This document shows, piece by piece, positions 9,447-13,642 of a stretch of DNA of 17,336 bases. The DNA is taken from the IMG/VR virus record IMGVR_UViG_2636416089_000002. One strand, 5' to 3'. Under the pieces are notes generated by a model that worked only from the letters and a program-made list of their open reading frames with translations, made no database searches and had not been told where the DNA came from. The stretch is from a virus. Lineage: Duplodnaviria > Heunggongvirae > Uroviricota > Caudoviricetes. A program made the position numbers and the translations under genes. How positions within the stretch are numbered: the stretch's first letter is position 1; the number at the start of each line of letters is the position of its first letter.

Positions 9447-9667
9447 ACGACACCTCCCAGACGCTTAAACATTTTTCCGGACTGAAACGCCACCAGCGGG
9501 TAACTCAGGGTATAAGTACGCCCCTGCACCTGGCAGACAACCTTCTGACTTTCTGCATTGACCAGGCAAACCCGCAGAACGAGGCCGTTGCTGGTGGTAA
9601 ACCACTGCCCCACTCGGGGGCAACGGTTGTATCGGTGATACAGGAAATTAACGATGTGGCGGATCAT
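9443..9667 (-). CDS. Hypothetical 74-aa protein
   Basis: ORF translationally coupled (4-bp overlap) to the initiator gene downstream and the 64-aa ORF upstream. Confidence 0.4.
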   Translation of the reverse strand: MIRHIVNFLYHRYNRCPRVGQWFTTSNGLVLRVCLVNAESQKVVCQVQGRTYTLSYPLVAFQSGKMFKRLGGVV

Positions 9668-9858
9668 GGACGCACCTCCGCCGTAGTTACGTATTTAACC
9701 GGGCTACCTTTCATTGAGATGGTTTCACACATCTCTGCCGCTTTCAGTTCCGCTGTTTTTCTGGATTTATAGCGACGGTGCCAGACAGATACATCCGTGC
9801 GAACTGATACATCGTTTCTGTATTCCGTAGTGGAGATGATGATTTCGTAACTAATCAT
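9664..9858 (-). CDS. Hypothetical 64-aa protein
   Basis: ORF with 4-bp overlaps to both neighbours. Confidence 0.4.
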   Translation of the reverse strand: MISYEIIISTTEYRNDVSVRTDVSVWHRRYKSRKTAELKAAEMCETISMKGSPVKYVTTAEVRP

Positions 9859-10706
9859 GGGCGAACCTCCTTGTCAGAACCATTCAGCCTGGAATCAACA
9901 AGTGCAGCGCCAAAAACAGCATCACCAACACGGTCGTACAGTTTGCTAGCCAGCGGAGATTCAACGGCCTTAAGCATTGGATAAAGCTGGCTTGTCCAGA
10001 TTTGATGGATTTCACGCAAATGCAGGTATACGCCTCTGGCGTTTCGTGCGACAGCTGACATATCAGACGTATCGGCACCTGATAAACTCTTCTCCATCAG
10101 GTTAAAGGCGTTGATGTATGCCTCTTTGAACCGGGCAGCACGTTTACCAGTGAAGCCCATGGCAAGGAACGCGAAGCCATCGCGGGTGATTTGATAGCAA
10201 GGTAGTTTGCGGCCTGATGCGTCGGTGTATTCACTTAACACAAAATTGTGTTCAGTAAATTCAGCGGAACATTCGAGGTTTCTAATTCTATCTAAAACCC
10301 GCTCATGCCGTTTAGTAAAGTAATTAGCTACTGCAAGAGATGTGGTGACAACGCGACCATTGATAATCGTGATTTCAGGGTGAGATTGGGTTGGGAGAGT
10401 AGTCATGGTGACAGCCCCTATGTTGAATTCAATGAACTCACCACCAAGGCTTTCCACGACCATATAGGTGGTGAGACGTACAGGGGTGGAAATACCGGTC
10501 AACATAGAACCCGGCCCAACCGAAATTGGCCCTGCACGCCACACCATAATTTGGGCGTAACGATGCTCATGACACGAAAAAACCGCATGAGCGCGGTTGT
10601 GCTCTATATTGAATTTCGGGTTTCCACGCCCGGCACCCGCTTTATAAGGTGCAGAGACAGTGTAACGTCCCGAAATTGCAGAATCAATATGCTGGTGGCG
10701 GATCAT
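9855..10706 (-). CDS. Rha-family phage regulatory protein (antirepressor-like) with 100-codon N-terminal extension
   Basis: Rha-like core begins at the internal Met (codon 101, ATG at 10406, preceded by AGGGG): MTTLPTQSHPEITIINGRVVTTSLAVANYFTKRHERVLDRIRNL. The full ORF starts with ATGA overlap to the upstream gene. Confidence 0.65.
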   Translation of the reverse strand: MIRHQHIDSAISGRYTVSAPYKAGAGRGNPKFNIEHNRAHAVFSCHEHRYAQIMVWRAGPISVGPGSMLTGISTPVRLTTYMVVESLGGEFIEFNIGAVTMTTLPTQSHPEITIINGRVVTTSLAVANYFTKRHERVLDRIRNLECSAEFTEHNFVLSEYTDASGRKLPCYQITRDGFAFLAMGFTGKRAARFKEAYINAFNLMEKSLSGADTSDMSAVARNARGVYLHLREIHQIWTSQLYPMLKAVESPLASKLYDRVGDAVFGAALVDSRLNGSDKEVRP

Positions 10707-11365
10707 AGGTGCACCTCCCGTTGATTACGACGGAACGCGGAGTGACCCTGGACGGTTTCAGCCTCATGGAATGCTTCAATACAGCTCTCGTAGTACCGCA
10801 TTGTGCGCAGACTTAACCCAAGCTGAAGCATCATCAGACCATCAAGGGTGATGTAATAACCACGCAGGGAGTCACCGTAGATGTGATAAGTACCCGGTAT
10901 GAAATTGCGGGTAAAAAACTCGCGTGAGCAGTTCAGATACTCGATTTTGTCGACGATGTTCTGGTGCATGCGCTTAAAGTGGCAGGCAACATGCAGGGAG
11001 AAAATAACGGCCTTGCCGTTGACAACTTCAATTTTGAGGAATGGGGAAGTTGGGACTGTAGCCATGATGGCAGCCTCCGTATGCAATGGATAACTTCCAC
11101 CACCGGAGCTGCGAAACTCACTGGTGGCAGACTGAACAGGGTTCGCAGTACCGGCGCATACGGAAACCGGCGAGCCTTTCGGCTCCCCTGCCCAGCCCAC
11201 CATAATTCTGGCGTGCGTGAGCGCGGACGATAAAAAAGACGCTGGCGCGTCGTATATCGCCGTATGCAATTCCGGGCTGCGACCCCCGGCACCCGCTTTA
11301 TAAGGTGCGGAGACAGTGTAACGTCCCGAAATTGCAGAATCAATATTTGGTCTTGAAATGATCAT
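10703..11365 (-). CDS. Rha-family phage regulatory protein, tandem paralog with 100-codon N-terminal extension
   Basis: Rha-like core from internal Met at codon 101 (ATG at 11065, GGAGG 8 nt upstream): MATVPTSPFLKIEVVNGKAVIFSLHVACHFKRMHQNIVDKI. The first ~60 nt are near-identical to the paralog. Confidence 0.65.
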   Translation of the reverse strand: MIISRPNIDSAISGRYTVSAPYKAGAGGRSPELHTAIYDAPASFLSSALTHARIMVGWAGEPKGSPVSVCAGTANPVQSATSEFRSSGGGSYPLHTEAAIMATVPTSPFLKIEVVNGKAVIFSLHVACHFKRMHQNIVDKIEYLNCSREFFTRNFIPGTYHIYGDSLRGYYITLDGLMMLQLGLSLRTMRYYESCIEAFHEAETVQGHSAFRRNQREVHL

Positions 11366-11450
11366 ATAGCTGCTGATATCTTTAGAACTGTTCTTGGATG
11401 TTTCGGAGCCGTTTTATGCGAAACAGCTCCCCGTTATTGATGTTGAGTGA

Positions 11451-11474
11451 GCCGGGTTACTCCCGGCTTTTTTT
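11451..11474 (+). terminator. Candidate plus-strand intrinsic terminator between two minus-strand Rha genes
   Basis: GCCGGG-ttact-CCCGGC followed by T7 on the plus strand. Confidence 0.45.
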
Positions 11475-12181
11475 CATCGCTGCCAACCAATAACCTGAAA
11501 TAACCCCATTTTCGGGTGATACCAGCGAGTCCCTCGCGGTTCTGCTTCCTCCATAACCCGATAAAAAGCAGCCATAAACGGTTCCACAGCAACAATTGCG
11601 CGACGTGACAACAATCCGTCCGGCGTCATGAACTCATGTGTGTCTGTAGGAATTTGATAGGCGTTCACCAGATTGCGGCATTTATCATCTGACAAACCGG
11701 TTTTTGCTTTCAGTTGGCGATATCCGGCATAGCCCTCACGAATAGTGCCCTTTTTAATTTGCTCGACTGTTTCAGCAACGTGGCTGACTTTTTCTTCCAC
11801 CTGAGTGATCCGTTTCTGTTGGCGAACGGCTTCAAGAGCCATCGCGGCAACCATTTCGATTTCGCTCATTGGCTTACGGATCTGTTCTTCCAGTTCGCGC
11901 CAGCGATCTACCAGGCGAGCTGTGAATTCAGGACAGAGCTGTGCGACGACAATGATGCTGTCGCGCTTACCTTGTTCGCCTTCGAAGATGTAAGCACCTA
12001 CATTTCGTTTTAATCCTAAGTTGTTGATTATTTCGAAATTCGCCATTGGCGCACTTCGAATAATCCCCTTATCCATGAGCCTTTCAATGCTGCGCTTAAC
12101 ATCTTTGTGTTGGCTGCCCACCAACTCTGCGATTTCAAGGCTGGTCATGGATGCTTTGCCGTTAAAAATTGCGGTGTTCAC
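11474..12181 (-). CDS. Rha-family phage regulatory protein
   Basis: NTAIFNGKASMTSLEIAELVGSQHKDVKRSIERLMDKGII matches the Rha N-terminal pattern. Start placed at GTG 12181 (AAGGAG 6 nt upstream); in-frame ATGs at 12187 and 12223 are alternatives. Confidence 0.7.
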   Translation of the reverse strand: MNTAIFNGKASMTSLEIAELVGSQHKDVKRSIERLMDKGIIRSAPMANFEIINNLGLKRNVGAYIFEGEQGKRDSIIVVAQLCPEFTARLVDRWRELEEQIRKPMSEIEMVAAMALEAVRQQKRITQVEEKVSHVAETVEQIKKGTIREGYAGYRQLKAKTGLSDDKCRNLVNAYQIPTDTHEFMTPDGLLSRRAIVAVEPFMAAFYRVMEEAEPRGTRWYHPKMGLFQVIGWQR

Positions 12182-12300
12182 TGCCATCTCCTTACGGATA
12201 AATTCTTTTAAGATTCCGCACATTCGTACTTATTGGTGCCGAACCTTCCTTCAGTTATCCTTTTGATCCCTATAAACAAAAGAACCAAAGGAGGTTCGAC

Positions 12301-12874: not shown

Positions 12875-12927
12875 TCTTTAGTCTCACACCAGATACTTTG
12901 TTATCCAACGATGTTAACCACAGGAAT

Positions 12928-12964
12928 CCAAAGTATCAAGAAATTCTGTTACTTTAGTATCAAC
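12928..12964. promoter_or_regulatory. Candidate operator/promoter region upstream of the repressor gene
   Basis: AGTATCAA at 12932-12939 and 12956-12963, sharing the motif found downstream of the repressor gene. Confidence 0.4.
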
Positions 12965-12985
12965 AGCCATGAGAGGAGAAGAAAA

Positions 12986-13642
12986 ATGAAGTCTTTAGGT
13001 GAACGTCTCATCAACGCACGGCAAAAAGCTGGGTTAACACAAGATGCGTTGGCTAAAAAAGCTGGGATCACCAGAGTTGCAATCAGTAAAGCCGAGCAAG
13101 GCCTTACAAAAAGTTTCAACGGTGACACCCTTTTTAAAGTTGCAGCTGCACTGCGGTGTTCACCGCAGTGGCTTCAGAACGGAGATGAAAAAGATAAGCA
13201 TTGGGAAAATAATGTTAAGAGCTGCCCACAGAGAGACACAGCACACTCTTACCCTGTAATTAACTGGGTTCAGGCAGGATTATTCGCAACTTCTGGTGAT
13301 GACTACAACATGTATGATCAGGATAATTGGAGGCATTCTGTAAAATACGCTGGTGAGAGGGGGTTCTGGCTGGAAGTGCACGGAGACTCAATGACTTCGC
13401 CCGTAGGAATAACATTTCCTGAAGGAATGTCGATCCTTGTCAACCCAGATAAAGAAGTTTTTTCAGGGTGTTACGTCATCGCCAGAAAAAAATCTACCAA
13501 TGAAGCAACATTCAAAAAATATATTTCTGACATGGGAAAGGCGTTTCTAAAGCCCCTTAATCCACAATATCCAATCATAGAAATGGACAATGATTGCGAA
13601 ATAGTAGGTGTTGTGGTTGATGCCAGGTGGGATATTTTCTGA
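12986..13642 (+). CDS. cI: CI-like prophage repressor (N-terminal HTH, C-terminal LexA/S24 autopeptidase domain)
   Basis: MKSLGERLINARQKAGLTQDALAKKAGITRVAISKAEQG, Ala-Gly cleavage site (VQAGLF), GDSM serine and downstream Lys. RBS GAGGAG before ATG 12986; the ORF track starts further upstream at 12911. Confidence 0.85.
   Translation: MKSLGERLINARQKAGLTQDALAKKAGITRVAISKAEQGLTKSFNGDTLFKVAAALRCSPQWLQNGDEKDKHWENNVKSCPQRDTAHSYPVINWVQAGLFATSGDDYNMYDQDNWRHSVKYAGERGFWLEVHGDSMTSPVGITFPEGMSILVNPDKEVFSGCYVIARKKSTNEATFKKYISDMGKAFLKPLNPQYPIIEMDNDCEIVGVVVDARWDIF

Follow-up and report, generated by a model that had tools for sequence, protein, structure and literature searches.

Two tandem IsrK-C4-type RNA cassettes at Rha-type genes of a lambdoid Escherichia coli prophage

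The window analyzed here is a stretch of 17,336 nucleotides of viral DNA (Caudoviricetes; IMG/VR record IMGVR_UViG_2636416089_000002), and the subject is a pair of adjoining minus-strand genes at positions 9855 to 11365 whose products resemble Rha-family phage proteins. In each gene the first 100 codons overlie an IsrK-type small RNA (sRNA), a C4-type antisense RNA and a set of matching pairing sites, all in front of an internal start codon. We conclude with good confidence that the region consists of two tandem, independently specified RNA-controlled antirepressor cassettes, kin to phage P1 immI, the phage P4 immunity region, and Salmonella Gifsy-1. Such RNAs, the sites they target, and their link to antirepressors are already known from P1, P4, Gifsy-1, and Rfam, and to these the locus adds two tandem members with distinct specificities.

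An earlier reading of the sequence alone had proposed an RNA-level element like C4 or IsrK, to be checked with Infernal against Rfam, and the covariance models bear this out for both families in both copies. Scanned at the Rfam gathering thresholds (isrK, 50 bits; C4, 45 bits; c4-a1b1, 46.7 bits), the window gives four matches, isrK and C4 in each copy, with E values from 4e-10 to 1e-14, and these are therefore beyond chance. The IsrK-type sRNAs (RF01394) lie at 11232 to 11308 on the minus strand in module 1 (57.0 bits) and at 10576 to 10652, same strand, in module 2 (61.6 bits). The C4-type RNAs (RF01695), also on the minus strand, lie at 11120 to 11207 (80.4 bits) and 10464 to 10551 (74.8 bits), each matching the model from end to end (1 to 87 of 87) and each beginning 25 nucleotides (nt) past the end of isrK. 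Matches to snoR124 and mir-1231 are sub-threshold noise. The hairpin followed by T6 that the sequence-only reading had seen in both copies is the IsrK terminator, with stems at 11251 to 11238 (copy 1) and 10598 to 10581 (copy 2), each followed by T6 and each flagged by a terminator scan. Likewise, the possible promoter TTGATT-17-TACACT sits exactly before IsrK +1 in both modules, occupying 11315 to 11343 on the minus strand in module 1 (−35 at 11343 to 11338, −10 at 11320 to 11315) and 10659 to 10687, minus strand, in module 2 (−35 at 10687 to 10682, −10 at 10664 to 10659). Its −10 hexamer lines up with TATAGT, the −10 element annotated for the c4 promoter of P1.

The segments that define the P1 system, a1 and b1 in the upstream element, a' and b' in the antisense RNA, and a2 and b2 in the target, can all be placed in both copies. 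In IsrK-1, the hairpin 2 loop holds a1 TCGCAG (11282 to 11277) and the linker holds b1 TGCATACGG (11268 to 11260); in IsrK-2, a1 is GTGGAAA (10627 to 10621) and b1 is TCAATATAGAGC (10612 to 10601). C4-1 carries b' in the loop of its hairpin 2 (CCGUAUGCG, 11163 to 11155) and a' in the 3' linker (CUGCGAA, 11148 to 11142), and C4-2 carries b' GUUCUAUGUUGA (10510 to 10499) and a' UUUCCAC (10492 to 10486). The target regions follow on the minus strand at 11063 to 11119 (a2 TTCGCAG, 11115 to 11109; b2 TGCATACGGAGGCTG, 11085 to 11071; start codon, 11065 to 11063) and at 10404 to 10463 (a2 GTGGAAA, 10457 to 10451; b2 TCAACATAGGG, 10426 to 10416; start codon, 10406 to 10404). In copy 1, b' is complementary to both b1 TGCATACGG and b2 TGCATACGGAGGCTG, and a' to both a2 TTCGCAG and a1 TCGCAG; in copy 2, a' UUUCCAC is complementary to GTGGAAA at a1 and at a2, and b' to b1 and b2. 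These pairings were found by ungapped searches restricted to the C4 loop region; RNAduplex runs of the whole C4 against the whole IsrK or start region returned long, uninformative duplexes that ignore intramolecular structure and were set aside. The internal methionine, given earlier as codon 101 with its own ribosome binding site, is codon 101 in both copies (ATG at 11065 to 11063 and 10406 to 10404), and its Shine-Dalgarno (SD) sequence is present in both and is spanned by b2 (GGAGG in copy 1), the C4 target. The conserved AUG of an orf45-like frame stands at 11203 to 11201 in copy 1 and 10547 to 10545 in copy 2.

A further box lies between a2 and b2, GGTGGTGGA at 11104 to 11096 in copy 1 and GGTGGTGAG at 10445 to 10437 in copy 2. 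The GGTGGTGAG-type box is conserved and covaries in one of the loci (L011); its complementary partner is the 3' strand of the stem that closes C4 (CTCACCACC). An alternative hairpin with a2 inside it, in competition with the C4 fold, could result, and the box may correspond to the alternative structures described for the Salmonella locus.

Comparison with relatives supports both the RNA folds and the pairings. Using the Rha domain (183 amino acids [aa]) as the only query, we obtained 46 loci in species-representative genomes and another 80 in IMG/VR. An isrK and a C4 RNA lie directly 5' of the start codon in 15 of the 20 genome loci tested, 13 of them under enterobacterial names (one, L009, is filed as Martelella alba) and two in Endozoicomonas. 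A C4 profile places the RNA at the same position in the IMG/VR loci and finds second or third cassettes in many contigs, and arrays of two to three cassettes are therefore common. E. coli prophage contigs L063, L064, and L127 carry three each, and L049, L053, L073, L076, L085, L086, L094, L097, and L122 to L126 carry two; outside E. coli, arrays occur in Symbiopectobacterium and Erwinia (L013 and L041). Folding was checked with RNAalifold. Among 18 diverse C4 sequences, including both copies, P1, and P4, 16 of the 27 pairs show compensatory double changes, which support an architecture of a long closing stem around two hairpins. The IsrK fold has six such pairs, all of them in hairpin 1.

The three-way match of a1/a'/a2 and b1/b'/b2 is found in every one of 50 unique aligned leaders, with a of 7 nt and b of at least 7 nt (mostly 9 to 15). 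These comprise 11 a types and about 19 b types, reassorted among cassettes, and the run of complementarity between b' and its own b2 averages 10.7 nt, compared to 5.4 nt against modules with a different b'. We take this three-way covariation across leaders as the strongest evidence that the pairings are functional. Within an array, the a type is sometimes repeated and the b type never is; selection for differing b types was considered and not retained, as the number of b types makes the result not clearly beyond chance. An asymmetry between b1 and b2 emerges when their position-matched cores are compared over 29 distinct b configurations (L003 to L128 and P1; 10601 to 10612 versus 10416 to 10426 in the window). 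Where the cores differ at a pyrimidine position, the T stands in b1 and the C in b2 in 16 of 16 configurations, spanning about 10 independent b types, and b1 therefore pairs with C4 through G.U where b2 has G-C. Core comparison was used since G.U counts over the full runs are confounded by the SD extension of b2. This asymmetry fits a decoy that binds C4 more weakly than the target does, and we did not find it described in the literature searched.

On these grounds a mode of action can be proposed for each cassette. Transcription would start at the cassette's own sigma-70 promoter, and most transcripts would end at the intrinsic terminator to give a 77-nt IsrK-type sRNA bearing a1 and b1. Transcripts that read through would contain the C4-type RNA, presumably released by processing, whose exposed a' and b' would base-pair with a2 and b2, just before the Rha start codon. 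Pairing is predicted to block translation because b2 overlaps the SD sequence, and the C4-bound message may in addition be exposed to Rho termination, by analogy with P1. The a1 and b1 segments of IsrK would compete for the same C4 segments and so act as a decoy that relieves repression, comparable to the activation measured for Salmonella IsrK. The IsrK-to-C4 ratio, set by terminator read-through, would then gate the antirepressor, with specificity residing in the 7-nt a and the roughly 9- to 15-nt b sequences. The a and b sequences are wholly different between the two cassettes at both sites, and therefore each Rha protein is expected to respond to the RNA pair of its own cassette only, so that the two would be gated separately.

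A close parallel is the P1 immI region, whose experimentally annotated order is promoter, a1, b1, c4, a2, b2, icd, and ant, with b2 over the ribosome binding site of the first gene in the antirepressor operon; in P1 and P7 the region comprises the c4 antisense RNA, icd, and ant1/ant2. According to work by Citron and Schuster in 1990 and by Biere et al. in 1992, C4 of P1 reportedly keeps the first gene from being translated and brings about Rho-dependent termination ahead of ant; the P1 record itself states the roles of the sites. The P1 leader scores 68.8 bits for C4 and 51 bits for c4-a1b1, and its isrK score is below threshold (35 bits; E value of 8.5e-6), in contrast to the a1/b1 elements of the window, which exceed the isrK threshold. 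IsrK is thus equivalent to the a1/b1 element of P1 plus a terminator. The present cassettes also differ from P1 in that b2 lies on the SD sequence of the Rha-type gene itself with no separate icd-like open reading frame (ORF), in that the downstream protein is of the Rha family rather than Ant, in lying inside a long ORF within a lambdoid early operon whereas the P1 leader has in-frame stops, and in being two in tandem. In satellite phage P4, isrK (60.8 bits) and C4 (74.9 bits) models match upstream of the derepression gene epsilon, over a CI RNA with seqA, seqB, and seqC; P4 scores on both the isrK and the c4-a1b1 models, as does P1 (with its sub-threshold isrK), and the controlled gene is epsilon rather than a gene for a Rha protein. 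The CI RNA of P4 acts mainly via transcription termination. P2-like phages also carry the cassette before an epsilon-like gene for a "derepression protein" (P88-like L130 and Citrobacter phage Shae_phiSM, L132, at about 1500 to 1770), and in Yersinia phage vB_YpM_39 (L131, about 1478 to 1720) it lies between divergent genes, ahead of a small ORF, and has stops in all three frames.

The isrK-orf45-anrP locus of Gifsy-1 resembles the cassettes in its above-threshold IsrK, in read-through into a C4-like region (STnc1160/orf45) with an antirepressor downstream, and in the conserved AUG with which orf45 begins, at the 5' end of the C4 region. The two differ in that the orf45 stop overlaps the anrP start (AUGA), whereas the corresponding AUG here is in frame with Rha and followed by no stop; a 287-aa Shigella dysenteriae protein with such an in-frame AUG has been described (Hershko-Shalev et al. 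2016, PMC4825925). In Salmonella, both termination and read-through occur at IsrK, and the orf45 region downstream gives rise to the processed RNA STnc1160; anrP translation goes up about 140-fold when IsrK is provided in trans, and compensatory mutations support pairing of IsrK G28/G31 with C162/C159 (PMC4825925). By our numbering, C162 and C159 fall in the a' segment of C4. No mention of phage P1 or of C4 antisense RNA was found in the text of that paper (PMC4825925), and orf45/STnc1160 were therefore apparently not related there to C4 of P1.

Several points weigh against the proposed RNA control and its extension to both genes. The c4-a1b1 model (RF03163) stays below its threshold, at 23.8 bits in copy 2 and with no match in copy 1; a1/b1 complementarity is nevertheless present in both copies despite the weak score, and the isrK model spans the same element. 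At 8 of 12 matches to the sigma-70 consensus, both promoters are under the scan threshold. Separate gating is qualified by two cross-matches, one between a' of C4-2 (AUUUCCACC) and GGTGGAAGT in the copy 1 leader (11101 to 11093; 9 nt) and one between the C4-1 loop (GGUUUCCGU) and a1 of copy 2 (10619 to 10627; 9 nt including G.U pairs), and full orthogonality of the cassettes is therefore not certain; this complementarity could reflect chance or limited cross-talk. The protein encoded by copy 1 is short and falls just under the Rha cut-offs; its antirepressor function is assumed. The view of C4 as a repressor in P1 and that of IsrK as an activator working through alternative structures in Salmonella are not formally unified, the decoy being our own synthesis.

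A simple alternative is that a recent tandem duplication or gene conversion alone explains the common architecture, the hairpins being functionless. The genes are adjacent, their extensions are both 100 codons long, and a nearly identical block is indeed shared, with 61 of 62 identical nucleotides (11346 to 11285 versus 10690 to 10629), slightly longer than the 57 nt reported from the sequence alone. Yet the remaining leader is only 38 to 60% identical in nucleotides; the first 330 nt of the Rha coding sequence (CDS) are 47% identical, and the proteins 37%. The block is the promoter plus IsrK hairpin 1 and the beginning of hairpin 2, because the isrK model starts 6 nt past TACACT, and alignment with relatives shows it to be constant in nearly all E. 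coli-type leaders, across every a/b specificity type. The near-identity is thus the constant part of the cassette, and we reject it as a sign of recent duplication. Even the equal length of the extensions arises from offsetting differences in two segments, the distance from ATG to IsrK +1 being 57 nt in copy 1 and 54 nt in copy 2 and that from the C4 end to the internal ATG 54 and 57 nt, respectively. With the same anatomy in Citrobacter, Serratia, Edwardsiella, Pantoea, Endozoicomonas, P1, and P4, duplication alone is exceedingly improbable. Only slightly less so, and still very unlikely, is that the extension is a genuine Ash protein domain fused to Rha and the RNA matches are incidental. 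The long ORFs are the PGAP annotation, and the Pfam family Phage_ASH (PF10554) matches aa 15 to 111 of both at 60.1 and 32.9 bits against a cut-off of 26; the Rha frame is also open across most leaders, with an upstream in-frame ATG. That match, however, runs from the −10 hexamer through IsrK and C4 to a2/b2, so that a promoter and an intrinsic terminator lie inside the "domain," and its variation takes the form of RNA base-pair covariation together with three-way a/b covariation. Over the 44 leaders in which the frame is open, entropy at codon positions 1, 2, and 3 is 0.62, 0.72, and 0.68, unlike the adjacent Rha CDS of the same loci (0.42, 0.35, and 0.92); a third-position excess of variation, expected under protein-like purifying selection, was not found in these leaders, so that a protein domain is not what evolves in this segment. 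The same Pfam model matches an obsolete "cI protein" ORF of P4 (L129, 8168 to 8584, minus strand) exactly over the C4-family CI RNA, and the P1 and vB_YpM_39 cassettes have stops in the relevant frame.

It appears, then, that the PF10554 family is the conceptual translation of the isrK-C4 RNA cassette, an equation that we did not find in the literature searched. Ash has been treated as a domain of unknown function (PMC8951638), and PF10554 has been used as a marker for epsilon (PMC8628076); P4 epsilon itself matches PF25738 and not PF10554. Searched against proteins, the 100-aa extension matched only 61, mostly partial and of at most 175 aa, from which domain architectures were not recoverable. 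Phage records name the region a peptidase, an antirepressor, a transcriptional regulator, or a Rha protein, or leave it unnamed, and none of the 40 phage-record rows listed gives an RNA name.

A different question is whether the long frame through the RNA cassette is ever translated, and a third alternative, which we consider a substantial possibility not far short of even, holds that the leader is purely noncoding and the long ORFs are annotation artifacts, the open frame reflecting common descent and the need to keep an orf45-like frame. The products would then be only the short Rha proteins or forms begun at the orf45-like AUG. Codon periodicity is absent from the leader, transcripts from the cassette promoters begin downstream of the long-ORF ATG, and in copy 1 that ATG has no recognizable SD sequence and lies 108 nt past the end of the previous gene. 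Against a noncoding leader, 44 of the 50 unique leaders have a length divisible by 3 and no stop in the Rha frame; in these 44 the other two frames contain about 4.4 and 2.5 stops per leader at 42 distinct stop-bearing alignment columns, although about 26 single-base changes per leader would create a stop in the Rha frame. In the 5' half alone, where the other frames have only about one to two stops per leader, the signal is weaker. All 44 leaders place the ATG 240, 243, or 246 nt from IsrK +1, and in five indel profiles nontriplet indels cancel out (e.g., −1/−2, +1/−1, and −1/+1). Moreover, an ATG that is always in frame stands 12, 15, or 18 nt before a ATATTGATT motif, which holds the −35 hexamer, in at least five different junction contexts, usually with a good SD sequence and usually overlapping the stop of the preceding gene as ATGA. 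Copy 2 is an example, its upstream ATG (10706 to 10704) following the SD sequence GGGAGGTG at an N6 spacer and overlapping the module 1 stop as ATGA. We did not find a conserved open frame through the isrK-C4 cassette reported in the literature searched.

The additional cassettes of arrays show the same frame behavior in 17 of 21 cases. The exceptions among leaders are L012, L014, a degenerate Erwinia copy (L041), Endozoicomonas, P1, and vB_YpM_39; in the P2-like phages another frame is open across the leader. Where the adjoining upstream gene is co-oriented, the frame is kept in five of five genome loci and in the E. coli contigs. Where it is divergent, the frame is kept only in some cases, among them L006 to L010, which have no adjacent co-oriented gene and so favor a noncoding leader; L012, L014, P1, and the Yersinia phage do not keep it. 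The link between frame conservation and a co-oriented upstream gene is suggestive only. In L006 to L010, ORFs of 479 to 588 aa (about 300 to 1250), which extend from far upstream across the cassette into Rha, were considered as fusions and rejected, their upstream parts being antisense shadows of divergent toxin-antitoxin-like genes.

Because transcripts from a cassette's own promoter cannot encode the long ORF, its translation needs upstream mRNA, the source of which would be the early operon on the cro/cII side. The long and short isoforms envisaged by the sequence-only reading are consistent with the conserved open frame and the in-frame SD and ATG upstream of the promoter, and the copy 2 ATG is well placed for translational coupling to copy 1. 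Real translation of the long frame is plausible, with at most an even chance. We raise tentatively, as possible and on balance doubtful, that lambdoid prophages deliberately keep the cassette within a translated ORF and that it has two modes of action, Ash being a translated-through RNA switch whose coding constraint goes no further than an open, in-phase frame. In a lysogen, firing would be confined to the internal promoter, transcripts would lack the upstream ATG, and the antirepressor would be set by the balance of C4 and IsrK. Upon induction, early-operon transcripts would arrive from upstream, and ribosomes coupled at the 10706 ATGA would cross the IsrK terminator, C4, and a2/b2; their passage would melt the RNA switch and yield a long Ash-Rha isoform independently of C4.

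The genes downstream of the leaders are read as follows. Module 1 has a long ORF of 220 aa (10703 to 11365, minus strand; PGAP name "ash family protein") and a short Rha-like CDS of 120 aa (10703 to 11065, minus strand); module 2 has a long ORF of 283 aa (9855 to 10706, minus strand; "Rha family phage regulatory protein") and a short, Rha-family antirepressor-type CDS of 183 aa (9855 to 10406, minus strand). The earlier description of the pair as Rha-family paralogs stands for copy 2, which matches Phage_pRha (PF09669) at 105.4 bits (cut-off, 29.9) and TIGR02681 at 100.8 bits (cut-off, 45.95), and less firmly for the 120-aa product of copy 1, which reaches 28.0 and 37.9 bits against the same cut-offs. 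The two are homologous all the same, their Rha domains being 37% identical as protein (E value of 2e-22). The tandem pair is present at coverage of at least 80% in 91 of 5,426 complete E. coli genomes, and partial matches occur in 1,314 genomes; E. coli SCU-387 has the region at 99.9% identity.

Directly upstream of both cassettes is a third Rha-family gene (11474 to 12223, minus strand; 249 aa; PF09669, 34 bits), for which the Rfam scan gave no isrK/C4 leader. Between this gene and cassette 1 is a strong terminator-like hairpin that reads on the plus strand (11449 to 11469), immediately before which no annotated plus-strand gene was seen; a tR1-like terminator (12282 to 12297, minus strand) lies between the 249-aa gene and a cII-like ORF. 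The gene starts at 10706 and 9667 have a common junction, GGAGGTGC-N4/5-ATGATCCGCCAC (about 10695 to 10723 and 9656 to 9684, minus strand), and both products begin with MIRH. Related junctions precede cassettes in other contigs, behind different genes, and the junction looks like a recombination linker for inserting or stacking cassettes at gene boundaries. The wider context (1683 to 2822, 6214 to 8519, and 12911 to 13642) is that of a lambdoid E. coli prophage, with a plus-strand LexA-like (S24) repressor, cro- and cII-like ORFs, a DnaC-like loader, and a DnaB helicase, as well as a DUF968/HNH protein, a DNA methylase, and a DUF1737+SASA esterase. An STnc100 sRNA homologue (3045 to 3235, minus strand; 139 bits) and three tRNA genes (3315 to 3561, minus strand) lie downstream of the replication and Nin-type genes.

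To the known system we add the Ash equation, the open frame, and the b1 asymmetry, which are modest but real. Routine annotation makes such regions an "ash family protein," "peptidase," "transcriptional regulator," or Rha with an Ash domain left unexplained, and recognition of the cassette leads to correct gene starts and reveals what actually controls the antirepressors of E. coli, Stx, and Salmonella prophages. Control of antirepressors bears on prophage induction and cross-induction, and arrays of two to three cassettes per prophage suggest several independently gated antirepressors. The a/b repertoire amounts to a compact, programmable RNA code that is always matched three ways. If the open frame is translated, one 300-nt segment would serve as a promoter, two regulatory RNAs, and a translated sequence, and a widely used Pfam family would describe an RNA.

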